Below are positions 624 to 30,366 of a DNA stretch of 42,592 nucleotides, one piece after another; positions within the stretch are counted from its first letter, which is position 1; each line of letters begins with the position of its first letter. The stretch is from contig JAZDIN010000035.1 in assembly GCA_043804895.1 (NCBI GenBank), positions 1 to 42,592 on the forward strand, given 5' to 3'. Below the pieces are notes generated by a model. The model was not told where the DNA came from. It was given only the letters and a program-made list of their open reading frames with translations, and made no database searches. Both the position numbers and the translations under genes were made by a program. This DNA is from Candidatus Altiarchaeota archaeon (GTDB taxonomy: Archaea > Altiarchaeota > Altiarchaeia > IMC4 > SCGC-AAA252-I15).

Positions 624-3600
624 ATGAAATGCTTAGCGTCGGCTTTGTTGCTGCTTATTCTTGCAGGGTTTGTTTCATCCGCGCCGCCGCTCATGTGGGA
701 GTACAAGACCGTCGGTACAGTCTCCACTGACTTGGTTGTGGACGACTACGGCGTGTACTTTGGAACGTCCTCTGGGAAGCTTTATTGGCTTAACAGGACC
801 ACTGGCGCTCTAGTGATGAACTACACCGCAACTTCCGGCATATACTCGACTCCGGTCGTCGCAGGGGATATGGCGTACTTCGGCTGCGACAACAGTATAA
901 TATACGGCCTCAACAAGAGCAGTGGGAAGACTTTGTGGACTTCCATGGTGAAGGGTAAGGTCCGATCCTCTCCCGTGGTTTATGGTGGTTCCATCTTTGT
1001 CGGAAGCGATGACAATCACCTTTACGCGCTCAAGGAGTCGAATGGGAGGATCCTATGGAGGTTCAACGTCGGTTCCCCGTTGGGGTCCGCGCCTGTAGCT
1101 GACAACTGGAAGGTGTACTTCGGGACCTTGGATACGAGGGCTTACTCCCTAAGCAACGTCAGCGGCGAGGTCATCTGGAACAGGACTCTCGGGGGCGCTT
1201 TGAAGTCTGCTCCTGTGATATACAAGGACGTAGTATATTTTGCTTCAGGGGACAAGAGGCTGTATGCTCTTGACAGGTATGACGGTGAAGTGCTTTGGAA
1301 TTACACACTCAACGGGTCCATCTCAGGTTCGCCTGTGGTCTCTGGTGATAATGTACTTCTCTCGGGTGGTGATAAAAGGGTGTACTCACTCAACGCATAC
1401 TTCGGAGACCTAGTGTGGAATGTCACGTTAAACGAGACCCCCCAGACGACCCCGCTAATAAATGATGGCTTAGCTTATGTGGGTGCTGGAAGTAGGGTCT
1501 ACGCCATCAACGAATCCACTGGTGAGCTGATATGGGTTTTGAACGCCTCATGGCCTGTGAAATACAAGCCCTCGTTTTCTGATAAGGTGTTGTATGTGCC
1601 TGCAGGCTCGTATGTGAAGGCTTACGGGGGCGTGGCTGATGTTACAGTCGCTAGTATCACGCCTAAACCGATGGTCGCGGTCGCTGGCAGACCGTTCACC
1701 CTTGAGGTTGAACTTATGAACCTGGGCAACACCATGGCGTTTGACGTTCCGGTTGAGGTGTACGTTGACAGGGTGAACGTATCCTCCCATAAAGTCACCA
1801 TCGGCCCCGGTTCTTCGGTCAAGCTTGAGGAGGGGATTTCAGTCTCATACGGCAGGCATGTAGCCGAGGTTGTCCTAGACAAGGACGACAGGCTTGTCGA
1901 ATCCAACAACTCCAACAACCGCATGGGGGTCGTATTCTCAGCTGTGATTGATTGGCCTACACTGCAGCAGAACAACAACCGGACTGGTTTGTTCGACTCT
2001 AAGGAAAAGTACGTTGGAAGGAATATCATGGCGAAGTGGACTTGCAACACGAACATCACAAACAGGACTCTGGCCGACGTCGGCTTCCTGTTGGGTGCGG
2101 TCAACTCCACCCGGGGCTTCCGTCTTGCTGACCTCAGGTTAAATTCCACATGCCAGATTTCACAGAGCCGAGGCTACTTCACTGGGAAGGTCTACTCCAA
2201 CTGGACGTGCAGGCCGTACAACACGACCGGATACTCTGACAGGAATTTCATCGCATTGGTTGACTACTTGAACTCGTTCAATGAGACGGTCTACAACATT
2301 TCCCTCAGGCACAGGGCCATTTACTACACCTACAACCTAACGGACTTCAGGGTGCTTTTCAACTGCACATCAACTGTGAATCCTGAGATTCCCACCCCCC
2401 AAGCCGCATTCTCCTGGGACTGCAGGGTCAGGAGGGACTTAAATGCGACACCCTACAACATAACCGGCGCATGGTCATGCGCTACCAACTACTACACCAA
2501 CAGCTCATTCGAGGACTTGGCAGAATTGAAAGGCTACCGTGAGGTCGGTAGGTTCAACAACTTCACAAGCAGGATAGGCCTTGAAGAATACCGCCAAAAA
2601 TGGAACTACACCACCAGCGGGAAGGTCGAGTCCTCCCCGATACTCGTGGATTTGGATTCGAGTGGCGACGGGCTTTTAGAGGTAGTATTCGGTTCATACG
2701 ATGGGAGCGTGTACGCGCTGAACCCTGACGGCAGCCTAATATGGCAGACGCATCTTACCGGTGGCGTCCACTCAATAGCTTCTGCGGATTTGGAAGGAGA
2801 CGGTCAATTCGAGATACTAGCCGGAAGCCTTGATGGCAAACTCACATGCCTTGATTCGAAGGGCAACGTCAGATGGTCATACTCCACGAGAGGTCAGGTC
2901 ACCTCAACCCCGATGGCATTGGATATTGACAATACGCCAGAGGAGGAGGTAATATTCGGGTCAGCTGATGGGAGGATAATCGCATTGGACGTTCGGGGGA
3001 CTCTTCTGTGGGACTACAGGACATCTGACAAAGTCTCCTCCACAGCCACTGCAGCTGATGTTGATGGGGACGGCATGAATGAGGTGATCATCGGCTCAGG
3101 CGACAACATCCTCTACGTTTTGCGTACGCCGCCGTACAAGGTTTGGATGTACCAGACGAACGGGGACGTAAATGCAGCCCCTACAATAACCTACTCTTAT
3201 AGCGGCAGGAGCCCTGAAATCATCGTCCCCTCGGCTGATGGGAAACTCCACGACCTATACTACGGGTCAGCTGGGGAGGAGGGGGCGGTTAGGGTGTGTG
3301 GTCCGGAAGGCTGCAGCAGGGAGGGGGTTGCGAAGACCCGCCTGAATGCGCGCTGGAATTTCACTGCCGATGCTGGTATAGAATCATCGCCTGCCGTCGC
3401 TGACTTGGACGGGGATGGAAGGGTCGAGTTCGCGTTCGGCTCACTAGACCACAACCTCTACATCCTGAACAAGACCGGCCATAGGCTTTTGAGGTACAGT
3501 ACTGACGGTCCAATCTACTCGTCGCCTGCGGTGGCGGACTTGAACGGCGACAGGTTGCTTGAGATTATCATAGGCTCCGATGATGGGAGGGTGTATGTCA

Positions 3601-4010
3601 TAAACGGCAGCGGAGAGGCGGAGTGGACTTACCGGACTGGCGGTTTCGTGCGCTCCTCACCTGCTGTTTCAGATGTGAACAACGATGGCATGGTGGAGTT
3701 CGCCATAGGTTCAGACGACGGCAGACTGTACATGTTCAGCCCCAAGGAGTCTACGACCACGACCACCATAACCACTTCGACCACCACGACAACTGAGATG
3801 TCCACAACGACAACATCATCCACCACAACGTCAACAGCGACCACTTCAACGTCCACGACGACGCAGCCTACCGCGCCAGGGAGGGTCTTCCCGTCTGACA
3901 GCAACGAGTTGGGTGTGTTCATCCTCCTCATATCCCTACTGGGGTACTATTTCCTCACAGTCATGCACCCGCCTGCGCACACCAGGGAGAGCAAGCTAAA
4001 AAATGCATAA
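624..4010 (+). CDS. Large surface protein: signal peptide, PQQ/BamB-like beta-propeller, CARDB, Cys/Asn-rich region, FG-GAP/VCBS-like propeller, Thr-rich stalk, TM anchor
   Basis: Repeated SSPVV...VYFGSxDxxLYAL...G...W units; ADVTV...ESNNSNN CARDB-like segment; DLDGDG-type Ca-binding motifs; poly-Thr region at 3750-3870; C-terminal hydrophobic helix. Confidence 0.85.
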   Translation: MKCLASALLLLILAGFVSSAPPLMWEYKTVGTVSTDLVVDDYGVYFGTSSGKLYWLNRTTGALVMNYTATSGIYSTPVVAGDMAYFGCDNSIIYGLNKSSGKTLWTSMVKGKVRSSPVVYGGSIFVGSDDNHLYALKESNGRILWRFNVGSPLGSAPVADNWKVYFGTLDTRAYSLSNVSGEVIWNRTLGGALKSAPVIYKDVVYFASGDKRLYALDRYDGEVLWNYTLNGSISGSPVVSGDNVLLSGGDKRVYSLNAYFGDLVWNVTLNETPQTTPLINDGLAYVGAGSRVYAINESTGELIWVLNASWPVKYKPSFSDKVLYVPAGSYVKAYGGVADVTVASITPKPMVAVAGRPFTLEVELMNLGNTMAFDVPVEVYVDRVNVSSHKVTIGPGSSVKLEEGISVSYGRHVAEVVLDKDDRLVESNNSNNRMGVVFSAVIDWPTLQQNNNRTGLFDSKEKYVGRNIMAKWTCNTNITNRTLADVGFLLGAVNSTRGFRLADLRLNSTCQISQSRGYFTGKVYSNWTCRPYNTTGYSDRNFIALVDYLNSFNETVYNISLRHRAIYYTYNLTDFRVLFNCTSTVNPEIPTPQAAFSWDCRVRRDLNATPYNITGAWSCATNYYTNSSFEDLAELKGYREVGRFNNFTSRIGLEEYRQKWNYTTSGKVESSPILVDLDSSGDGLLEVVFGSYDGSVYALNPDGSLIWQTHLTGGVHSIASADLEGDGQFEILAGSLDGKLTCLDSKGNVRWSYSTRGQVTSTPMALDIDNTPEEEVIFGSADGRIIALDVRGTLLWDYRTSDKVSSTATAADVDGDGMNEVIIGSGDNILYVLRTPPYKVWMYQTNGDVNAAPTITYSYSGRSPEIIVPSADGKLHDLYYGSAGEEGAVRVCGPEGCSREGVAKTRLNARWNFTADAGIESSPAVADLDGDGRVEFAFGSLDHNLYILNKTGHRLLRYSTDGPIYSSPAVADLNGDRLLEIIIGSDDGRVYVINGSGEAEWTYRTGGFVRSSPAVSDVNNDGMVEFAIGSDDGRLYMFSPKESTTTTTITTSTTTTTEMSTTTTSSTTTSTATTSTSTTTQPTAPGRVFPSDSNELGVFILLISLLGYYFLTVMHPPAHTRESKLKNA

Positions 4011-8043: not shown

Positions 8044-9909
8044 TCACTTCTCCTCAAGCTTGCCTCTCTCAGCCTCTATGAGCCTCCGAAGCTCGTCATC
8101 GACCTTGGACTTGGTGTCCTCCTCTACCCTAAGTGAAAGCTCCTCGTTTCTCCTTCTCATATCCTCCTCCCCCTGCTGGCTCCTAGTCTTCAGGTCCGTC
8201 TCCATGACTCTCTTACTCCTCAAGTACTGTAACGCCAAAAACACGGCCACAATCCCTATGACACCTATAAGTATCATAGTGTTCCTGCTCTGGCTTGATT
8301 GCTTGTCTAACTCTTCCCTGCTCGTGTCGATGACCTTCTTCGACTCGTCGACTCCTATGGTGTAGTTCACCTCCACATACAGCTTGTTCGCTGCTTCAGC
8401 GCTCGTTAGGGTGTTTCCGTAGTCTGACGCCTGCAGGTAATTCAACGCCTTGTTGAAGTTCTTGTTAGCGCTGTCAAGTTTGTCCATCCCATCCCTTATC
8501 GCCTGCACCAGCTCGCCTACCTTCTCGGTGTTGTCATTGTCGTGCATGTCAGAGTAAAGGCGTCCGGCTCTGCTTGCATCCACCAACGCCTCATCGAAGT
8601 TCGCGCTCATCGAAAACGCCTTCGCGCTGGCAACAAGGGACTCAGCCTCGCTGCGCTGCCTCATCACCATCTTTATCTGCTCTATGAGCGTGTCCGACTT
8701 CGAAACCCCGACGTAGTTCTTCAGCTGGAAGAAAATGTTTCTGGCACTGTTCGCATACGACAGGGCCTCATTCAGGTTCAATTGGAGGTAATACTCCTGG
8801 CTCGTCCTGTAATACGTCTCTGCTATGATTAGCATCCTCTCTGCGCTGCACGTGTCCTGTATCTTGGACATGAGCGCGTTGACTTCGCCAATGTACGTGT
8901 CGTACAGTTTCACGGTGTACTGCTGGCTCTTCGGAAGGTTACCCTCCCTCTGCAAAGCAAGGTCCCTCAGCTGCTGGTATATGCTCTTCGCCTTCGAAGC
9001 CCTGTCAGTGGCGTTGAAGCAATCCCCTATCAGGGAGAAGCGTTTCGCCTCCTCAGAATACGCTTGAGCCTGCTTTTTCATGCCCTGCTCCCACCTGTCT
9101 CCAGTCTCCTTACACCTGGATAGGAGCATTGTCGCGGCCGAATATCCCTCAGAGTCATCTATGCTCGTGTACAGTCCCTGCGACGCGCCCGCGTACTGTA
9201 TGCACAGTTTAGTGTCGCCTGCGGTGTAATACTGTATAGCCTTGTCATAGCTTGCCTTCGCGTTAGTCCTTATCTCATCTATCTTAGCGTTAATCGATGA
9301 CAAAAGCAGTGCGCTCTTGTCCACCCCCGTCTGGTAGGGGCAGGCTAGATACCTTGCGCTGGCATTGGAGGCGTAAATCTTCGCGGTCACATAATAGTCT
9401 GAGAAGAAGCTATTTTGAGCTTTAGCGTACAGGTCGTCTCCCTCACGTATGCAGGAGTTCACGTTATCGTTTATCTCCTGGCTAGCCTCGTTGATGAGGT
9501 CCTCGCATTTTAAAATCCCAGATGAGCCGACAGTACCTCCGATGCTAGCGTAAATCTTCTTAGCCTCCTGTGCCATCATGATGGCCCGGCTTAGGTCGAA
9601 TGTGTCCTTATTAGCGCGCGTGAAATACTCCCCTGCGATGCCGTAGTAGGTGTCCGCAAGCTGGGTCGGGGTCAACACCAACCCTATCTCCCCTATTAGT
9701 TTGTCGCATTTGTCGACGCCCCACCTCTGGCCGATCGCCCCGTAAGCTTCCTTGCTGAGGTAAGCGCTTGCGAGCGCGTTCTGGTACAGTCCAGAGCGGT
9801 AGCTTCTCTCAGCTGTCTGGTAAAGGCTATCAGCCTCAAGGCTCGAATACTCCGCTGATGCGAAGAACGCAATCAACAGCACGATGCATAACGCGCCAAC
9901 CCTACTCAT
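8044..9909 (-). CDS. Membrane-anchored extracellular helical (TPR/SNAP-like) repeat protein
   Basis: Signal peptide; repeated A..Y..A...Y....Y..A...A..A...Y...G...GV.KC..L units; TM helix MILIGVIGIVAVFLAL; charged coiled-coil tail. Confidence 0.75.
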   Translation of the reverse strand: MSRVGALCIVLLIAFFASAEYSSLEADSLYQTAERSYRSGLYQNALASAYLSKEAYGAIGQRWGVDKCDKLIGEIGLVLTPTQLADTYYGIAGEYFTRANKDTFDLSRAIMMAQEAKKIYASIGGTVGSSGILKCEDLINEASQEINDNVNSCIREGDDLYAKAQNSFFSDYYVTAKIYASNASARYLACPYQTGVDKSALLLSSINAKIDEIRTNAKASYDKAIQYYTAGDTKLCIQYAGASQGLYTSIDDSEGYSAATMLLSRCKETGDRWEQGMKKQAQAYSEEAKRFSLIGDCFNATDRASKAKSIYQQLRDLALQREGNLPKSQQYTVKLYDTYIGEVNALMSKIQDTCSAERMLIIAETYYRTSQEYYLQLNLNEALSYANSARNIFFQLKNYVGVSKSDTLIEQIKMVMRQRSEAESLVASAKAFSMSANFDEALVDASRAGRLYSDMHDNDNTEKVGELVQAIRDGMDKLDSANKNFNKALNYLQASDYGNTLTSAEAANKLYVEVNYTIGVDESKKVIDTSREELDKQSSQSRNTMILIGVIGIVAVFLALQYLRSKRVMETDLKTRSQQGEEDMRRRNEELSLRVEEDTKSKVDDELRRLIEAERGKLEEK

Positions 9910-11777
9910 ATCCCCTCCTCCGGTTTAGGCATCTCAAACGGTTCATCAAGCACCTGCTGCCGCCCCCCACTGCTCCTCCTCCTAAGATATAACGCCAGCA
10001 AGACTATAAGTAGAACGCTGAGAAGCAGGTAGTTTTGCATGTTCATCACGCCATCCGCTGCCGGAAGCGTGGTGGAAGTCGACGGCCTGTAAGGTATCGT
10101 CCCCCCAACATCGCCCAGCCTCTTCTCAATCTGAAGTTTCAACAGCTCGCACTTCACGACACCCTCTTGGTTCCCGAATTCCGAATATATGGCCTGCGCC
10201 TTGTTCACGAACGACTGTGAGCTTGTGTAATCCTCGCTGAAAAATAATTCCTGAGCCTTCGAATAATATATGTCAGCCTCCCTCCTCCTCTCTTCCAGCA
10301 TGTTGGTCTCCATCCTGAATATGAACGACTGCGATTCCTGCACGCCCCGCTCGTATCCGAGCCTAAGGTACAGCGCCTTAGCCTCCTTGAAGTACTCTAT
10401 CGCTCCCGTGGTGTCAGATGAGATGAACGCCTCCTGACCGAGGTTGAAGAGCGTGTCAGCCCTCCTCCTCACAGTGTACGTCTCATTGACTATGTATGCC
10501 TTAGCCTTATAGTCCTCAGAAACAGCGATTATTCCCTTCGTCCCATCCTCTAACATATTGCCTGCAGAAACAACCATGAGCGGCGAACCTGTGTTATACC
10601 TCCACTTGAAGTCCCCGCTAGCATCTAAAAGATAGATTGAACCGCTTGAAACAGCCACGAGAATATCCTCCATCCTGTCCCCATCGACGTCCTCGAGTGA
10701 AATGTCATTCGGTTCCCCGTCCAGGGGATAATCCCAGAGGACGAGGCCATTGTTGTCCACGGCATAGACTTTGTTGTTGGCGCATGCCACGAGCGTCTCC
10801 ATCGCGTCGTCGCCGTCCAGGTTAGCCAGGATGGCGTCCCTTACGCTGCACTTCAAATCAAGCGTCCACTTCACGCTCAAATCTAAGGTGGTCGCCGTCC
10901 TTTTCTGCCCTGTGGGGCTGGTGTAGCCTACTCCTTCTGCCTTATCGATCCCGACTGCAACAATTTTGTCCGAGTCCGTCACTGCGATTGTGGTCGGGTA
11001 GTTGCTGTTAACCCCCTTCGCAGCTGATACGAACTTGAAGCCCCTCTTCCGTATGTCGACGTTCGGCTCAACGTCTATCTTACCCATCAGCTTCCCGCTC
11101 GCGTCGATGTAATAAAGCGCGTCCGAGCCTGCGATGACGTCTCCTACTCCGTTCTTGTCGACATCGTATATGTACACCGCGTCAGTCGACACGTTAAGTA
11201 CTCCCTCACCGCGCGGCGGATACATCCATATGTTCTCCCCATAGCTGCGGAAGAGGAAAATCCTCTGCTTGGAGCCTCCCACAATCTCATAATACCTGTC
11301 CTCCTCCATGTCCCCCACATACATGCTGCCCATGACAGCGCTGGAATCGTACTTCCTCAAAGTCCTACCCTCGCTCCCCATGACCCTGACAGTCCCCCGC
11401 TGTATGTTATTCAACTCCTCTCCGCTTGCCACGACCAACTCCAGCCTCCCGTCGTTGTCCACGTCAAAGAGGGCGGCGCTGGATATCCTCTCATCGACTT
11501 CAATCTCCCACAAGACAGAGCCGTTAACGCTAAAAACGCTCACATGGTTCTTCACGTCCCCGACCATGCGAAAAATCCTGGGGCCGGACAGGACGACAAC
11601 GGCCTCCCCGCGCCCGTCAGCGTCTATGTCCTTAACCCATGCACCGACTACTATGACGTTATCGTCCACGGACGGCATCAGAGGTTGAGTCCAAACAGGA
11701 CTTAAGACATCTGTCTGCTGGGCTGAAACCGCCTGTAAAACGGCTAAAATCAAAACCAAAAGCCTGACACTCCTCAT
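9906..11777 (-). CDS. Surface protein with FG-GAP-like beta-propeller, helical repeats and TM anchor
   Basis: Signal peptide; DIDADG/DVDNDG/DVDGD motifs; helical repeats like those of the downstream gene; C-terminal LLLSVLLIVLLALYL-RRR. Confidence 0.8.
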   Translation of the reverse strand: MRSVRLLVLILAVLQAVSAQQTDVLSPVWTQPLMPSVDDNVIVVGAWVKDIDADGRGEAVVVLSGPRIFRMVGDVKNHVSVFSVNGSVLWEIEVDERISSAALFDVDNDGRLELVVASGEELNNIQRGTVRVMGSEGRTLRKYDSSAVMGSMYVGDMEEDRYYEIVGGSKQRIFLFRSYGENIWMYPPRGEGVLNVSTDAVYIYDVDKNGVGDVIAGSDALYYIDASGKLMGKIDVEPNVDIRKRGFKFVSAAKGVNSNYPTTIAVTDSDKIVAVGIDKAEGVGYTSPTGQKRTATTLDLSVKWTLDLKCSVRDAILANLDGDDAMETLVACANNKVYAVDNNGLVLWDYPLDGEPNDISLEDVDGDRMEDILVAVSSGSIYLLDASGDFKWRYNTGSPLMVVSAGNMLEDGTKGIIAVSEDYKAKAYIVNETYTVRRRADTLFNLGQEAFISSDTTGAIEYFKEAKALYLRLGYERGVQESQSFIFRMETNMLEERRREADIYYSKAQELFFSEDYTSSQSFVNKAQAIYSEFGNQEGVVKCELLKLQIEKRLGDVGGTIPYRPSTSTTLPAADGVMNMQNYLLLSVLLIVLLALYLRRRSSGGRQQVLDEPFEMPKPEEGI

Positions 11778-19957: not shown

Positions 19958-20178
19958 TAACGCCTGAATACCAGATAATATGCTCCCATCAACAAGAGGC
20001 CTATGACCCCTACTGTAACTGCACTCTGCCTGTCTGAGCCGAAGACTATCGGAATCGGACCGAGGAACACAACAGCGCTGCCTTTGACTTCACTCCCCTT
20101 CGAAGAAAAGACGCCGACGACTATGACAATGAAACCGATTAACACTAGCATAATGCCGAGGCTCACCAACGAATCCAT
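19957..20178 (-). CDS. DUF131 (TIGR00304-like) small membrane protein
   Basis: Two TM helices flanking VKGSAVVFLGPIPIVFGSD. Confidence 0.85.
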   Translation of the reverse strand: MDSLVSLGIMLVLIGFIVIVVGVFSSKGSEVKGSAVVFLGPIPIVFGSDRQSAVTVGVIGLLLMGAYYLVFRR

Positions 20179-20212
20179 AACCCTTATTATATCCTGTATG
20201 CTATTTATAACA

Positions 20213-22345
20213 ATGCCTCGGGACTATATTGCATTATCTATAATCCTCCTAATGGCATCCTACTCCTCAGCCGCAGCCACAGCCCCCTTCCAAGACTCCT
20301 TCGAAGAGATGTGGACCGCAGACCTCGGCGGAGAAGTGAACTCCCTGAGGATATCTGACATCAACGGCGACGGGATGGGGGAAGTCATAGCAGACAGCCT
20401 GTTCCTAACATCATACGGCAGAAGCGGCACACTATTCTCATTGGATAAAAGCGGGACGCAAAGCTGGAAATACTTCGCAGGCCTTCTCAAGGACTCATAC
20501 ACAACTCAGAGGGGATACACCATCCTTGGCGCAGGACCATACGCGGAATTCGTCGCCCCCGACGGAGTTGCAATATGGAAGCGCTCAACCCGCTCCTCCC
20601 CGCTGCAGAGCATAGACTCCCAGAGCGTCTACGCCTCAGACCTAAACAACGACGGAAAAGACGATGCAATCATCGGCACTAACCTCGGCTCCAAAGGCAG
20701 CTACCTGAGTATAAGGAACGACCAAGGCGATGAACTGGTTGAGATAACCTTCAAGGGGAATGAAGCCCCCCATGCCATATATAGTGCAGACTTGAACGGC
20801 GACGGCATACACGAGATAATGGTCGGCACAATCCGATACACGCCAAACACCGTAAGCGGCTCACAGCAGGCAGCATACAGCAAACCAACCACATTCAGGG
20901 TGTTCAACATAGACGGCCTCCTAACATGGTCAGACGAATACGAGAGCGCCGTGACAGCAGTGAAGTCATGCGTACTCAAGGAAGATGAGGGACCTGTTGT
21001 AATAGCAGGAACCGCTAACCGCTTCAAAGTCTACGATACGAAAGGACAAAGACTCTGGGAGGGCAACGTCAACGGCCAGGTCACTGCAATAGAGTGCGGC
21101 GACATCGACGGAGACGGCGCTCTAGACATCGCAGTCGGGTCCAACACCCTCTACGCCTACAAAAACACCGGAGAACAGCTTTGGAGCTACAACTCCGGCA
21201 CAGTATCTGCGATACGTGTAGCCGACCTTGGGAAAGACGGTAAACCGGAGGTCATCGTCGCATCAAACTCTATCCGAGTGTTCAACGACAAAGGGGAAGT
21301 CGTATACCGCTCAGACAACTACGGTACAATAACCTCGCTAGACGTGGCCGACACAAACGACGACAACTACGAGAACATAGTCTTCGGCTCCAAAGACCAC
21401 AAGGTCAGGGCCTTGGACACCAAAGCATACTCTCAGGAGGTTATGGCAGACCACTACTACAACCAGGCTGAGAAAGCCTACACAGCCCAGGACTACAACC
21501 TCACAGTATACTCGGCCACGGAAGCCAGAGACATCTACGGCGCAATGGAAAAGGAGTCTGACAAGAACAAGGCAGTGAAACTGATAGAAAAGGCCACAGC
21601 ATATTCTGACGGCAACAGGTACTATAACCTATCCCAATACTACTTTGACAAGACTGAATACGGTGAAAGCGTCAAATACGCTGACAAGGCGTTGGAAGCC
21701 TACAAACCACTGAACGATGTGCGAAAAATCACCGAAGTCGACGGGCTGAAGAAGAAGGCTCAGATGCTGCCGAACGCCGAAGTCAACCTGAACTTGTCTC
21801 GGCAGTACTTCCTCCAAGGAGACTACGATAAGGCGCTGGAGTACTCAGCTAAGGCAAAGAGCGGATACGACTACCTTGGCAACGCAGCACTCAAGGAGGA
21901 GGCGAGCACAATAAACGCGAAATCGACGCTATACTTGGAGTATCACAACCAACTCGACATAGCCTACAACTACTCACTAGCCAACAACAAAGCCAACGCC
22001 ACATACCACCTTAAGCTCGCGCAGGACATATACGACCGGCTGAACGACACGTCCCTGAAGCCAAGGTACGAGAACGTGAGCAGCGTCCTCACGAACATCA
22101 AAAGGAAAGAGGACGTGATAGTCTACGGCGGCATAGGGGTCGTAGCCTTCATAATACTCCTAATAATCGCGTTCATCGTGCTCATTGCGTTATACTTCAA
22201 GCAGAAAGGTGGATTCGAGGCCATCAGAATGCTCGTAAACTCTTACAGCAACAGGTCTGAAGGCAGAGGGAAGGGTGGAGACAGCGGCCTTCGGGAGCTT
22301 CGCGGCAGGACGGGGGAAAGCATCGGAGACTCGTTCAAGAGATAG
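20213..22345 (+). CDS. Surface protein with FG-GAP-like propeller, helical repeats and TM anchor (architectural paralog of 9906..11777)
   Basis: A signal peptide from ATG 20213; DINGDG/DLNNDG/DIDGDG repeats; ADHYYNQAEKAY-type helical repeats; long C-terminal TM. Confidence 0.8.
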   Translation: MPRDYIALSIILLMASYSSAAATAPFQDSFEEMWTADLGGEVNSLRISDINGDGMGEVIADSLFLTSYGRSGTLFSLDKSGTQSWKYFAGLLKDSYTTQRGYTILGAGPYAEFVAPDGVAIWKRSTRSSPLQSIDSQSVYASDLNNDGKDDAIIGTNLGSKGSYLSIRNDQGDELVEITFKGNEAPHAIYSADLNGDGIHEIMVGTIRYTPNTVSGSQQAAYSKPTTFRVFNIDGLLTWSDEYESAVTAVKSCVLKEDEGPVVIAGTANRFKVYDTKGQRLWEGNVNGQVTAIECGDIDGDGALDIAVGSNTLYAYKNTGEQLWSYNSGTVSAIRVADLGKDGKPEVIVASNSIRVFNDKGEVVYRSDNYGTITSLDVADTNDDNYENIVFGSKDHKVRALDTKAYSQEVMADHYYNQAEKAYTAQDYNLTVYSATEARDIYGAMEKESDKNKAVKLIEKATAYSDGNRYYNLSQYYFDKTEYGESVKYADKALEAYKPLNDVRKITEVDGLKKKAQMLPNAEVNLNLSRQYFLQGDYDKALEYSAKAKSGYDYLGNAALKEEASTINAKSTLYLEYHNQLDIAYNYSLANNKANATYHLKLAQDIYDRLNDTSLKPRYENVSSVLTNIKRKEDVIVYGGIGVVAFIILLIIAFIVLIALYFKQKGGFEAIRMLVNSYSNRSEGRGKGGDSGLRELRGRTGESIGDSFKR

Positions 22346-22361
22346 TAATATGAGGTGACGT

Positions 22362-22538
22362 ATGGCATCTAAGTCGAAAAAACCAGCAAGCCAGTTGGAC
22401 AAGGTCAGCCGTGACATCCGAAAAGACAACAGGCCGACCCTGTTCGGCAAAGGCAAAGCCAGTGGAAAATACAAAATAGGGAAGACGAAAAAGAATAAGC
22501 ATGCAAAACGCAAGCACGCTCGGAAAAGAAAAACCTAA
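22362..22538 (+). CDS. Small very basic protein (58 aa), absent from the ORF track
   Basis: GAGGTGA Shine-Dalgarno-like site, then ATG: MASKSKKPASQLDKVSRDIRKDNRPTLFGKGKASGKYKIGKTKKNKHAKRKHARKRKT. Confidence 0.7.
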   Translation: MASKSKKPASQLDKVSRDIRKDNRPTLFGKGKASGKYKIGKTKKNKHAKRKHARKRKT

Positions 22539-22550
22539 AAACGGGTTGGT

Positions 22551-22775
22551 CTATTTCTTTGCCGTGCTGAATCCTAGCAGGCTGTAAGCCGTGCAGTGCC
22601 TTGTCATGCTCGTGAACAATCCGGCAAAAGCCAACAAGGCAAGCACTACCTTAATCGGCCAAAATTCGAAGAAACCCCAAGCCAGTATTATCATGGCCAA
22701 AGTCCCTACAAACGCCCTCAACATAAGGTCTACCCCCCCAACATTCTCCCCATACAAAACCCTTCCAAAATCCAT
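22551..22775 (-). CDS. DUF2892/YgaP-like small membrane protein
   Basis: NVGGVD...R, two TM helices and C.AYSLLG.ST. Confidence 0.85.
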   Translation of the reverse strand: MDFGRVLYGENVGGVDLMLRAFVGTLAMIILAWGFFEFWPIKVVLALLAFAGLFTSMTRHCTAYSLLGFSTAKK

Positions 22776-22882
22776 AATTCACCTCAAAAATACATCTGGA
22801 TATACTATCCCTCCTTAACGGAATTAAATAGGATAAGGGCACCGCATTAGCCACCTCCCTCCAAGCCGTGTCCGGTAAATCC

Positions 22883-22914
22883 TTTATTAAGGTTCTATGA
22901 CTAGGTATTACCTA
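22883..22914 (+). promoter_or_regulatory. TATA-like box and operator-like palindrome upstream of the aro leader
   Basis: TTTATTAA at 22883-22890, 23 nt before ATG 22914. The palindrome TAGGTA-T-TACCTA spans 22902-22914. Confidence 0.5.
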
Positions 22915-22991
22915 TGCGACTAGGGAACAGCAGTCTGAAAGTATTCACTCGAGGATTCCCTAGCTTCGGCTATTGCTCGTATACTTATTGA
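22914..22991 (+). CDS. Putative Phe/Tyr-rich leader peptide of the aroF-aroB operon
   Basis: MRLGNSSLKVFTRGFPSFGYCSYTY*: 3 Phe and 3 Tyr in the last 15 codons, directly upstream of DAHP synthase. Confidence 0.65.
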   Translation: MRLGNSSLKVFTRGFPSFGYCSYTY

Positions 22992-22994
22992 ATT

Positions 22995-23051
22995 CAGGAC
23001 TCATATCCTGTTTTCTTGATAAACATGTCCTCAACAACAAAAATGTTTTTT
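22995..23051 (+). terminator. Candidate attenuator: hairpin and T-tracts
   Basis: CAGGA-CTCATA-TCCTG followed by TTTTCTT, with a second T6 tract at 23046-23051. Confidence 0.45.
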
Positions 23052-23155
23052 AACCCGATGGCGGGCGTCAGCTTCATGGCATGCCTAGTCTACAGTGCAG
23101 CCAAACTGGCGCAACTGAAGCCTACGGGATTAGATGCAGCGTGTGAGGTGGAAAA

Positions 23156-24172
23156 ATGATAGTAGTAATGGGCAAGCGTGCGACTTCGCAAGATGTGGAA
23201 GCACTCTCGCAGTGGGCCAAGGCAAAGGGAATAAAGGTTCACTTGTCGCAGGGTGAGGAGCGGACAATAGTCGGCCTCATTGGCGATGTGAGGCAGCTGA
23301 CAAAGGAAAAAATCGAGATGATGGGCGGCGTGGAGAAGGTAATGTCCGTGTTGAAACCCTACAAACTCGTCTCAAGGGAGTTCCACCCTCAAGACACAAT
23401 CATACAGGTCGACGGTGTCGAGATCGGCGGAAACGATTTTGTCGTAATTGCCGGACCCTGTGCCATCGAATCTGAACAGCAGTTGTTCGAAACAGCCGAC
23501 AGGGTGAAAAAAGCAGGCGTGAAAATATTCAGGGCGTCGGCATACAAGCCGCGAACGAGCCCATACTCGTTCCAGGGTCTTGGGCTAAAGGGTCTGAAAA
23601 TGCTGAAAAAACTCAGAAAAGAAACAGGATTGATTGTGGAGACTGAAGTGATGGACATCAGAACCCTTGGTAGTGTCGTAAAACACGTGGACATAATCCG
23701 GATAGGGGCGAGAAACATGCAGAATTTTGATCTCTTAAAAGAAGTCGGAAAAATCAACAAACCCGTCATACTCAAGAGGGGGATATCAGCGACTATCGAG
23801 GATTTCCTCCTTTCAGCTGAATACATCGCAAGCGAAGGAAACGAGAAAGTGATACTGTGTGAGCGAGGCATAAGGACATTTGAAACTGCGACAAGGAGCA
23901 CACTGGATTTAAGCTCCGTGCCTGTCGTGAAGGAGCTATCCCACCTGCCCATAATCGTAGACCCAAGCCATGCCGCCGGAAAATGTTCACTAGTGGCGCC
24001 CCTAAGCAAGGCGGCCTTGGCCGTGGGCGCGCACGGCTTATTAGTTGAAGTGCATTGTGACCCTAATACGGCCCTTTGTGATGCGCAGCAGGCTTTAACA
24101 CCAGACGACTTTGATAAGCTGATGCTGGACCTAAGACGGATAGGGAAGGCATTGAAGAGGGACATCTCATGA
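23156..24172 (+). CDS. aroF: 3-deoxy-7-phosphoheptulonate (DAHP) synthase type I-beta with N-terminal regulatory domain
   Basis: IAGPCAIES, AYKPRTSPYSFQG, IGARNMQNF, LCERGIRTFE and DPSHA. N-terminal MIVVM...HLSQGEERTIVGLIGD. GAGGTGG ribosome-binding site. Confidence 0.96.
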   Translation: MIVVMGKRATSQDVEALSQWAKAKGIKVHLSQGEERTIVGLIGDVRQLTKEKIEMMGGVEKVMSVLKPYKLVSREFHPQDTIIQVDGVEIGGNDFVVIAGPCAIESEQQLFETADRVKKAGVKIFRASAYKPRTSPYSFQGLGLKGLKMLKKLRKETGLIVETEVMDIRTLGSVVKHVDIIRIGARNMQNFDLLKEVGKINKPVILKRGISATIEDFLLSAEYIASEGNEKVILCERGIRTFETATRSTLDLSSVPVVKELSHLPIIVDPSHAAGKCSLVAPLSKAALAVGAHGLLVEVHCDPNTALCDAQQALTPDDFDKLMLDLRRIGKALKRDIS

Positions 24173-25293
24173 ACTCTGAGGAAAAAATACGGGTGGGGTT
24201 ATCTCCCAACTACGATATTCTCGTATCGGATAAACTCACATGTCTTGTCGAGAAGCATCTTGCCAAGAAGGTCGACGCAAGCTGTTTTGTGATCGTCTCG
24301 GATCCCAACATCCTGAAAATCGGGAAGGCTGTCGGAGAAATCCTTGAAAAAAATAAATGCAAGGTGTTCGTCCTGGAAATCAAGGGTGGCGAAGAGAATA
24401 AAAACCTGAAGAATGTCGAGTCAATGATAGAAAAAATGCTAGAAGTCGGTGCTGATAGGAAGTCAGTGATTGTTAGCGTCGGCGGCGGTATTGTGGGGGA
24501 TACGAGCGGGTTCGTCGCCTCAGTATTCATGAGAGGGATACGTTTCGTGCAAGTGCCCACCACCCTATTAGCGATGGTTGATGCCAGTATAGGCGGCAAA
24601 GTAGGGGTAAATGCTCCTCAATGCAAAAATGCCATCGGAAGCTTTTTCCAACCTATGGAGGTTTTAATAGGGTTGGATGTGTTAGAGACATTACCTCAGA
24701 AGGAATGGAAAAATGGGCTGGCCGAGGTTGTGAAAACAGCAGTCTTAGGGGATAAGGACTTTTTTTCGTTCCTGGAAAAAAATCATGATGAAATAGGGTG
24801 TAAAAGAATCAACATCATAAGGGAGATTATCCTCTCATGCTGTAAAATAAAAGCAGGCATCGTGGAAAAGGACGTGAAAGAAGCCAACCTCAGGCAAATA
24901 CTGAACTACGGGCATACCATAGGCCACGCTATTGAAATAGCTACGGATTATGGGAAGGTATCGCATGGTGAAGCTATTGTTGTCGGGATGGAGGTGGAGG
25001 CGATTATCTCCAACAGAATGGGTTTTTTCCCTAATGCGGATTTAACTAGGCAGCACAATCTACTTCATAAACTCGGTTTAGAAACAATACTGCCCCCGGA
25101 CGTAAGTGCTGATAGAATAGTGGAGGCCTTAAAACATGATAAAAAGAATTTAGGCGGCAAAATCATATTTTCTCTGCCAGCTGAAATAGGCCGGATGAAA
25201 GAAATTGGCGGCAACTTCGGGATAAGCGTCCCACGGGATGTGTTAAATGCATCAGTTAAAGAGTTCCTTTCTGATGACAGACCTGCGTCTTAG
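24169..25293 (+). CDS. aroB: 3-dehydroquinate synthase (bacterial AroB type)
   Basis: GGGIVGD, VPTTLLAMVDASIGGKVGVN, GLAEVVK, LNYGHTIGHAIE and HGEA. Confidence 0.96.
   Translation: MNSEEKIRVGLSPNYDILVSDKLTCLVEKHLAKKVDASCFVIVSDPNILKIGKAVGEILEKNKCKVFVLEIKGGEENKNLKNVESMIEKMLEVGADRKSVIVSVGGGIVGDTSGFVASVFMRGIRFVQVPTTLLAMVDASIGGKVGVNAPQCKNAIGSFFQPMEVLIGLDVLETLPQKEWKNGLAEVVKTAVLGDKDFFSFLEKNHDEIGCKRINIIREIILSCCKIKAGIVEKDVKEANLRQILNYGHTIGHAIEIATDYGKVSHGEAIVVGMEVEAIISNRMGFFPNADLTRQHNLLHKLGLETILPPDVSADRIVEALKHDKKNLGGKIIFSLPAEIGRMKEIGGNFGISVPRDVLNASVKEFLSDDRPAS

Positions 25294-25942: not shown

Positions 25943-25943
<1 letters not shown>
25299..25943 (-). CDS. DUF434 domain protein
   Basis: AREDIRILLDRGY...AL.FISDHYRL, IDGFNVVITVE, DGMMRD, KSGRLA and ATSDS. 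Confidence 0.85.
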
Positions 25944-27007
<1,064 letters not shown>

Positions 27008-27016
27008 TCACCCCCC

Positions 27017-28290
<1,274 letters not shown>

Positions 28291-30077: not shown

Positions 30078-30366
30078 TATCTATTCTAGCAGCAGGGATA
30101 AATATCAGGCCCTCCTCGTCTGACATATCTATTGCCGTCCTGTCGGGTTATATACACACAAGACCTTTATCAGGGGCCTATTCTTCGACCCTCAAACTGG
30201 GTGGCCTCCACTCGGCTGTGAAGATTCTTGGGGGGTGAACTTAGACGATACTTAAGAAAGGGCGAAAAGACTAAAATCACGGGTGCTTTGGGAGTTCGTA
30301 GACAGTTTAGGTGAGGTTTCAGCCGTACGTTATCTTTTATTAGTCTACACTGCCCAAAATCCTACT

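Follow-up and report, generated by a model that had tools for sequence, protein, structure and literature searches.

The DNA analysed in this work, hereafter called the window, is a stretch of 42,592 nucleotides (nt) of contig JAZDIN010000035.1 from a Candidatus Altiarchaeota archaeon (assembly GCA_043804895.1), and the element in question is a short upstream open reading frame (uORF) at 22914-22991, which stands before the genes aroF and aroB and encodes a peptide whose C-terminal part is rich in phenylalanine and tyrosine. Judging from its sequence, we consider this uORF rather likely to be a functional aromatic-sensing leader of aroF-aroB. The genome (1.58 Mb in 71 contigs, 88.7% complete) is archaeal, with two TBP genes present and sigma-70 region 2 not found in it. 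AroF is predicted to be a 3-deoxy-D-arabino-heptulosonate 7-phosphate (DAHP) synthase of type I-beta and shows full-length matches to the Protein Data Bank entries 1rzm (4.4e-117) and 1vr6. The gene upstream lies on the other strand, so that positions 22776-23155 constitute a divergent promoter region. The features of this region and the genes that border it are the following:

22551-22775, opposite strand: YgaP-like membrane protein of 74 amino acids, upstream (Pfam)
22883-22890, plus strand: TATA-like box TTTATTAA, its end 23 nt ahead of the uORF ATG (sequence)
22902-22914, no strand: perfect palindrome TAGGTA-T-TACCTA, between the TATA-like box and the ATG (sequence)
22914-22991, plus strand: leader uORF of 25 codons, ATG at 22914 and stop TGA at 22989-22991, with no Shine-Dalgarno (SD) motif before the ATG
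22920-22927, plus strand: 5' arm, CTAGGGAA, of a stem here called P1; nt 7-14 of the predicted transcript, codons 3-5 (sequence and shuffles)
22956-22963, plus strand: 3' arm of P1, TTCCCTAG; it lies immediately 5' of the densest aromatic codons, with its end 25 nt ahead of the stop
22995-23010, plus strand: stop-adjacent hairpin CAGGA-CTCATA-TCCTG, with arms CAGGA at 22995-22999 and TCCTG at 23006-23010
23011-23017, plus strand: T-rich tract TTTTCTT, immediately 3' of the hairpin
23027-23031, plus strand: GTCCT, alternative partner of AGGAC at 22996-23000 (sequence and folding)
23046-23051, plus strand: T6 tract, candidate archaeal oligo-T termination signal
23145-23150, plus strand: SD-like GAGGTG, 5 nt before the aroF ATG
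23156-24172, plus strand: aroF, DAHP synthase with N-terminal ferredoxin-like domain (Pfam DAHP_synth_1 2.2e-82, DAHP_snth_FXD 6.6e-22)
24169-25293, plus strand: aroB, 3-dehydroquinate synthase (Pfam DHQ_synthase 3.9e-45, DHQS_C 3.1e-44), overlapping the aroF stop by 4 nt

The peptide encoded by the uORF is MRLGNSSLKVFTRGFPSFGYCSYTY, in which residues F11, F15, F18, Y20, Y23 and Y25 place six aromatic residues among the last 15, the stop codon following directly after Y25. This count, reported in an initial annotation of the sequence, was correct, and it is specific to the reading frame: over 22944-22991 there are six aromatic codons in frame 1, with 0 and 1 in the other two plus-strand frames. 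The motifs listed in the same annotation (uORF, 8-bp stem, CAGGA/TCCTG hairpin with TTTTCTT, GTCCT, T6 and palindrome) were all located again where it had placed them. The Phe codon used is TTC, hence no T run occurs inside the uORF. P1 is composed of eight Watson-Crick pairs between nt 7-14 and nt 43-50, and the hairpin has a 5-bp stem with three G-C pairs, its first paired base lying at nt 4-5 past the stop. The two T tracts start 19 and 54 nt beyond the end of the uORF stop codon, and the distance from the uORF to aroF is 164 nt.

Chance expectation and promoter geometry

It is unlikely that the uORF arose by chance. When the 380-nt intergenic stretch was shuffled 5000 times with its dinucleotides preserved, a plus-strand ATG-initiated frame of 15-60 amino acids with at least six aromatic residues in the last 15 appeared in 14 of the shuffles, and the same count was reached by 5 of 856 such frames in 391 crudely delimited intergenic regions of the genome. 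On both strands of the 1.58-Mb genome there are 9760 ATG-initiated frames of 18-35 amino acids, which are reduced to 63 when a TATA-like 8-mer at -36..-18 is required. Only three of these 63 have at least five aromatic residues in the last 12, namely the window uORF, a frame lying within a gene, and a frame that precedes an ATPase-like gene. The last of these (contig C17, 1524-1583), whose neighbour was judged by eye, was taken as a chance occurrence; the spacer in which it lies (C17:1440-1600), outside the window, is AT-rich and contains several GTGACTTAT- or CATGACTTAT-like words. Among the three frames, the window uORF is the only one with a P1 score of at least 8, a score reached by 2 of 54 control frames of the genome, and an 8-bp P1 at its position was equalled in 31 of 1000 segment shuffles. 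Likewise, of the 54 TATA-preceded small frames with enough flanking sequence, the window uORF alone joins a P1 score of at least 8 to a hairpin equally stable and equally close to the stop.

The position of the TATA-like box is also typical of the organism. The gap between TATA box and ATG peaks at 21-26 nt in this genome, where an SD-like motif was found in only 79 of 696 genes, and the 23-nt gap of the uORF corresponds to the modal spacing, being also within the 22-26 nt of most archaeal aroF leaders described below. The box TTTATTAA is the putative promoter of the uORF transcript, and the uORF is probably leaderless.

Aromatic uORFs before other aroF genes

Aromatic-rich uORFs are common before this AroF family. 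In scans of genomes and metagenome contigs, the nearest AroF sequences were 55-61% identical at most to that of the window. When the upstream regions of 162 aroF loci were scanned and the best uORF was scored by its aromatic residues in any 10 consecutive positions, at least six were found in 55 loci, four or five in 13, and three or fewer in 94; the window uORF, with four, falls in the intermediate group. The 55 loci, mostly from Clostridia, Oscillospiraceae and some Thermodesulfobacteriota, have SD-led aromatic-rich uORFs (e.g., ...FYFMFWGFYFSAGYFFCKK), examples being L008:2738-2875, L145:1520-1609 and L089:162-260 among the bacterial loci L008-L165. In the three loci that were read closely (L011, L089 and L145), the uORF is followed by a hairpin and a T run. 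Nothing in the window reached the gathering score in Rfam, which for 12 leader-bearing loci returned no family for the leaders, the sole match being a 6S RNA.

A FastTree phylogeny of the 162 sequences placed the AroF of the window in a well-supported group with sequences from archaeal metagenome-assembled genomes, two of which (L011 and L100) have strong leaders. In the L011 genome TFB is present and sigma-70 was not found, and AroF occurs at E <= 1e-60 in 84 of 401 genomes of its GTDB order, a tally that takes in three unpublished genomes on which no other result rests. The archaeal set was composed of 69 upstream regions, two unpublished loci being left out. In 35 of these 69 loci, an upstream frame with at least six aromatic residues in its last 12 was observed (range 6-10), and one further locus has five. 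Under strict criteria (an ATG-initiated frame of 18-35 amino acids that is preceded by a TATA-like 8-mer at -36..-18 and in which aromatic residues make up at least 5 of the last 12), matches were obtained in 27 of 67 regions read forward, 0 of 67 reverse complements and 0 of 28 sequences inside aroF, which makes the arrangement strand-specific. In a FastTree phylogeny enlarged to 188 sequences, the AroF of the window falls within a clade of 17, all archaeal, whose local support is 99%; leaders are present in 11 of the 16 others. The main claim of the initial annotation, that an aromatic leader peptide with attenuator-like structures precedes the DAHP synthase, is borne out by these results: the same architecture in half of the archaeal loci read, its strand specificity, and the place of AroF in a leader-bearing clade. 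In some loci the leader stands far from aroF, and the intervening gene resembles, in translations read by eye, prephenate dehydratase (L171), transaldolase (L190) or chorismate mutase (L215), which suggests that these leaders mark the starts of aromatic operons.

The promoter geometry of the archaeal leaders is uniform. A TATA-like box at -36..-18 is present in 29 of 33 non-redundant leaders, typically in the form TTTAWATA and with its end 22-26 nt ahead of the ATG; an SD-like motif was found before the uORF in one of the 33 and before the downstream gene in 28. In contrast, of 53 leaders that fall outside the archaeal clade, 33 are preceded by an SD-like motif and 3 by a TATA-like box. The TATA spacing together with the missing SD motif indicates that the archaeal uORFs are the first cistrons of leaderless transcripts. 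In this family the uORF has 20-31 codons and an aromatic C-terminus, and an SD-led aro gene follows 66-360 nt downstream. One nucleotide string, TTCTATTTTTATTTT, closes many of the archaeal uORFs, whose aromatic codons thus form runs of T5-T8 on the coding strand.

Two structural features recur in these leaders, and the 8-bp stem and stop-adjacent hairpin pointed out in the initial annotation correspond to them. The first is P1, which pairs codons 2-6 with a segment whose end lies 19-33 nt ahead of the stop, by means of arms that differ in sequence between loci; its sum score over the family is 207, against 178.5 +/- 6.8 in segment shuffles, none of which reached 207 in 1000. The arms nearly always contain a CTA(A/G) ... 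(C/T)TAG core, though the rest of the helix varies. The second is the stop-adjacent hairpin, which starts 1-4 nt past the stop in most loci and has a summed minimum free energy of -355.7, against -205.3 +/- 13.7 kcal/mol. In an unfitted MAFFT alignment of six sequences, 78.8% of the cells of this stem were paired, against 58.4 +/- 5.4 (0/500) and 29-57% in slid controls, and both sides had changed in 7 of 10 pairs; the structure was derived from the same six sequences, which favours the stem in that test. Covariation of P1 on the six-sequence alignment was weak, with three pairs changing on both sides, a number equalled in 79 of 500 shuffles. RNAalifold predicted no pairs on MAFFT alignments of the leaders, these being out of register, and for that reason positional shuffle tests were used in place of a covariance model. 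In 11 of 32 family loci a run of at least five T lies within the first 60 nt past the stop, where shuffles give 4.2 +/- 1.8 such loci (1/1000). It was also seen by eye that in the spacers of L167, L168, L170, L173, L174 and L182 a CTAAATCTTAAGG-like segment inside the stop-adjacent stem is complementary to a CTTAAGATTTAG-like segment located 3', and that both kinds of segment resemble P1 arms; this complementarity is suggestive of alternative pairings in a chain, or of a pseudoknot.

Judged by sequence architecture, the element of the window belongs to this recurrent class of leaderless aromatic-rich uORFs, which stand before aroF or aro operons in small (DPANN-type) archaea. With the archaeal aro leaders (Woesearchaeota-type) it shares the TATA spacing, with a gap of 23 nt, the lack of an SD motif before the uORF, the length, with 25 codons of which the last encodes Tyr, the position of P1, which ends 25 nt before the stop, the presence of a post-stop hairpin, in the window of a strength that chance also gives, the SD-led aro gene (GAGGTG) and the AroF clade, the latter in FastTree only. 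Locus L177 has nearly the same P1 arms as the window (CTAGGAA/TTCCTAG). The window differs from those leaders in that it comes from another phylum, its aromatic residues are fewer and non-adjacent, its Phe codon is TTC, and its hairpin is much weaker.

The distribution of the downstream genes is in agreement with their acquisition from elsewhere. None of 4 same-genus genomes was found to contain AroF, and among 40 relatives searched a strong match was present in only one further genome (5.9e-119), with weak and partial matches in three others; of 61 genomes from the phylum, 2 have AroF at E <= 1e-40, that of the window being counted in. The archaeal type II dehydroquinate synthase is kept in 5 of 5 members of the genus, in this genome at C22:2569-3585. 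Chorismate synthase and EPSP synthase are present on another contig, and contig C1 holds aro genes other than aroF-aroB (C1:35951-41391); with the two synthases encoded, there is a pathway for such a leader to regulate. Two entries to the shikimate pathway are thus observed, the acquired bacterial-type aroF-aroB (23156-25293) and the native type II dehydroquinate synthase on C22. From these sequence comparisons, we read aroF-aroB as an acquired accessory second entry to the pathway, with the native archaeal route retained, and the leader element probably arrived with this horizontally acquired module.

Regarding the rest of the window, the neighbouring pair of isopropylmalate dehydrogenase (IPMDH) and DUF434 genes is conserved in three same-genus genomes, and no AroB or AroF was found beside the pair there. 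On the minus strand at 25943-28186 lie two adjacent paralogous genes of the isocitrate/isopropylmalate dehydrogenase family, encoding 351 and 389 amino acids, and the DUF434-DUF5616 gene next to them is syntenic in same-genus genomes. Three large FG-GAP or PQQ-like beta-propeller proteins are encoded within 22 kb (624-4010, 9906-11777 and 20003-22345), and a frame of 1869 amino acids occupies 30283-35892.

Proposed mechanism and competing explanations

We hypothesize that the uORF works as follows. The transcript would be leaderless, starting at or next to the uORF ATG, about 23 nt past the TATA box, and running into aroF-aroB, so that the uORF, once translated, would be the first cistron and a gauge of aromatic amino-acid supply. 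When charged Phe- or Tyr-tRNA is scarce, the ribosome would stall on the terminal aromatic codons, and its footprint would cover the 5' arm of the stop-adjacent hairpin by direct occlusion. With the hairpin blocked, RNA polymerase would pass the T tracts at 23011-23017 and 23046-23051, and the SD-led aroF would be expressed. Under good supply, the ribosome would finish and leave, the hairpin would form, and most transcripts would end or stay silent before aroF. P1 may be a pause or synchronising hairpin; the 1:2 hairpin of trp is a pause hairpin, and by analogy P1 may keep the polymerase waiting for a ribosome to load. Oligo-T tracts are termination sites for archaeal RNA polymerase, and FttA/aCPSF1 is a termination factor that acts on ribosome-free RNA; either oligo-T termination or FttA/aCPSF1 could give the off state.

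Folding of the leader with a simulated ribosome, in which the footprint spanned -15/+12 nt around the A site, gave a divided answer: the hairpin was lost with the ribosome on Y25 or the stop, as the reading of the leader as an attenuator would have it, and the whole leader folded no better than its shuffles. The pairing probability of the hairpin at 22995-23010 was 0.97 for the free RNA; it fell to 0.00 when the A site was at Y25 or at the stop, and to 0.22-0.39 when it was at F18 or Y20. P1 paired with probability 0.98 in free RNA and re-formed behind the ribosome at 0.98. The AGGAC/GTCCT pairing, given as an alternative in the initial annotation, reached 0.70 with the ribosome on Y23 only and was otherwise at or below 0.01, so that a role as antiterminator is not supported.

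Several results weigh against the proposed mechanism and against the place of the window in the class. With the simulated ribosome on Y23 the hairpin kept a probability of 0.97, and direct occlusion would therefore work only for the last codon or two. The overall fold of the leader (22914-23160) was not above chance, with z = -0.94 and 34 of 200 shuffles folding as well, and the same holds for the stop-adjacent hairpin, whose best fold of -6.8 kcal/mol (z = -1.63) was matched in 15 of 200 shuffles; a hairpin as good was present in 28 of 54 control frames, and it is not distinctive in a genome of 52% G+C. A scan for terminator-like sites, which flagged the 5-bp stem with TTTTCTT among others, gave three sites, not above the 1.3 +/- 1.2 expected; the rule for intrinsic terminators on which it relies may not hold in an archaeon. 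Masking of the aroF SD motif was rejected as a general mechanism, because across the family its accessibility showed no difference between a stalled ribosome and one on the stop codon (18/28, p = 0.48). Since SD masking is unsupported and T runs follow the stop in only the 11 of 32 family loci mentioned above, the output step given above for the hairpin is a tentative one; in addition, archaeal polymerases are reported to terminate at oligo-T without needing a hairpin. As to membership, 5 of the last 12 residues of the window uORF are aromatic and none are adjacent, compared with 6-10 of 12 in the family, which places it below the at least six that define the class; the window copy, with fewer aromatic residues and a 5-bp hairpin, is the weakest of the set. 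A nhmmer profile of 28 leaders gave no match at the window site among the 15 best genome matches, all with E >= 11, and with a peptide hidden Markov model of 32 leaders the uORF ranked 320th of 9760 small frames (E = 120). A resemblance of the window to L011 and L217 around SFGY, noticed by eye, was not supported, as the profiles find no homology; hence the likeness is architectural and could be convergent. The window thus counts as a member on the grounds of architecture and of the phylogeny of its gene, descent at the sequence level not being demonstrable. Finally, its immediate AroF sisters, L006 and L007, have no leader, because aroF there follows a transketolase-like gene.

Some of these observations are also what would be expected if the uORF were a decayed or never-functional relic, the uORF and stems having come with the aroF module or by chance, and aroF being run by its promoter and by allosteric feedback through the ferredoxin-like domain. 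An aromatic density below that of every other leader counted, a hairpin and overall fold not above chance, the lack of profile homology to archaeal leaders and the nearest AroF relatives without a leader all fit such a relic, which we regard as possible, if rather doubtful. Against it stand the TATA spacing, length, frame-specific aromatic residues and P1 at the family position, which are jointly unique in the genome, and the intact frame, whose six sense codons for pathway products are more than those of some proven attenuators (AroR: Phe-Tyr-Phe, in the excerpt of PMC11802643 available).

Control by a protein is less probable still. The palindrome at 22902-22914, suggested in the initial annotation to be an operator, covers the predicted start and might bind a repressor, in which case the uORF would be incidental; it is a perfect 6+1+6 palindrome placed exactly between the TATA box and the start, with one genome copy against 0.087 expected. 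That single copy leaves no visible regulon, as no second one occurs in the genome, the surroundings of the other aro genes on contig C1 included, and the other archaeal leaders are without a palindrome at this place, so that the suggestion found no support. By our own arithmetic, any palindrome with 6-bp arms and a spacer of 0-3 nt is expected about 0.4 times in 380 nt. An operator at this site would, in any case, be compatible with a ribosome-sensing leader.

We think it very unlikely that the relevant cistron is instead a second frame at 23025-23159 (44 amino acids from its ATG), either translationally coupled to aroF or a remnant of a transketolase gene. This frame is open for 48 codons (47 from the TTG at 23016) and its stop overlaps the aroF ATG (ATGA), as does the end of a transketolase-like gene in L002 and L007; but the ATGA follows from the conserved N-terminus of AroF, ATGAT being found in nearly all homologues, an open frame of 48 codons has by our own estimate a chance of about 0.1, and no comparable frame is a feature of the archaeal leader loci. 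The stretch 23016-23159 was rejected as a transketolase 3' relic, the best tblastn match of three transketolase C-termini against 22346-23200 having E = 0.37 and being located elsewhere. A small protein product of the uORF that has its own function, and is not a sensor, would suit the intact frame and a promoter geometry typical of real genes of the genome, and is highly improbable given that the family shares composition and position, not sequence, and that all its members stand directly before aromatic-pathway genes.

Relation to known attenuators

Leader attenuation of aroF has been published, in the sources found and as far as their excerpts go, for two bacterial cases, aroR of Corynebacterium glutamicum and the motif known as uORFC-13-1, the second one being a proposal. 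In C. glutamicum, according to the excerpt of PMC11802643, which cites Neshat et al. (2014), the Phe-Tyr-Phe leader of the aroR-aroF attenuator responds to Phe limitation, and stalling there raises transcription. It differs from the window in its bacterial sigma-factor promoter and intrinsic terminator, whereas the window has an archaeal TATA box, leaderless spacing and other downstream structures, and is known from sequence alone. The uORFC-13-1 motif is described in the excerpt of PMC8632094 as a uORF with Phe codons found exclusively upstream of aroF, beside a terminator stem, in Acholeplasma and environmental sequences, and was proposed to sense the speed of Phe incorporation. It is bacterial, with -10 and -35 elements, and is likened to the window by its description in that excerpt only.

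The classical enterobacterial leader-peptide attenuators, of which the excerpt of PMC11802643 names trpL, pheL-pheA and pheM-pheST, share with the window a uORF rich in codons for the product, stems that overlap or follow it, and a tract rich in T ahead of the structural gene. Features of their own are an SD-led uORF, tandem regulatory codons, the 1:2, 2:3 and 3:4 hairpins and a strong terminator, while in the window the uORF is predicted to be leaderless, the aromatic codons are spaced, the hairpin comes right after the stop, and an antiterminator is not demonstrated. The lack of a 5' leader is predicted to be shared with the mycobacterial leaderless short frames with polycysteine (10.1101/834739), which act as attenuator and as first cistron of a polycistronic mRNA, and are rich in codons matching the amino acid of the downstream pathway; they differ from the window in being bacterial, with a mechanism known only from bacteria, and in reading cysteine, not aromatic residues. 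Full-text literature searches, whose coverage leaves out many subscription papers, found no published case of leader-peptide or ribosome-mediated attenuation in Archaea.

The logic of these leaders is classical and their implementation archaeal, and the copy in the window is weaker and divergent, comes from another phylum and is attached to an acquired gene pair. Whether leader-peptide attenuation, which is regarded as bacterial in origin, operates in Archaea in a rebuilt form, with a TATA-driven leaderless mini-gene closing on aromatic codons, a hairpin that begins at its stop and an internal stem that may synchronise polymerase and ribosome, the window being a case in which this form moved with the acquired aroF-aroB into a second archaeal phylum or evolved there again, is a proposition for which we see about as much in favour as against. 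Attenuation sensed by a ribosome depends on the coupling of transcription and translation on the same RNA, and a working archaeal example, if the proposal is true, would be a natural reporter of that coupling with a leaderless mRNA and under archaeal promoter and termination rules. It would constitute a new regulatory class for a domain with few known cis-acting RNA controls, and would make ribosome-polymerase coupling directly testable in uncultivated archaea. For the organism itself, it would mean that the acquired second entry to aromatic biosynthesis either brought along or gained a supply-sensing switch of its own.

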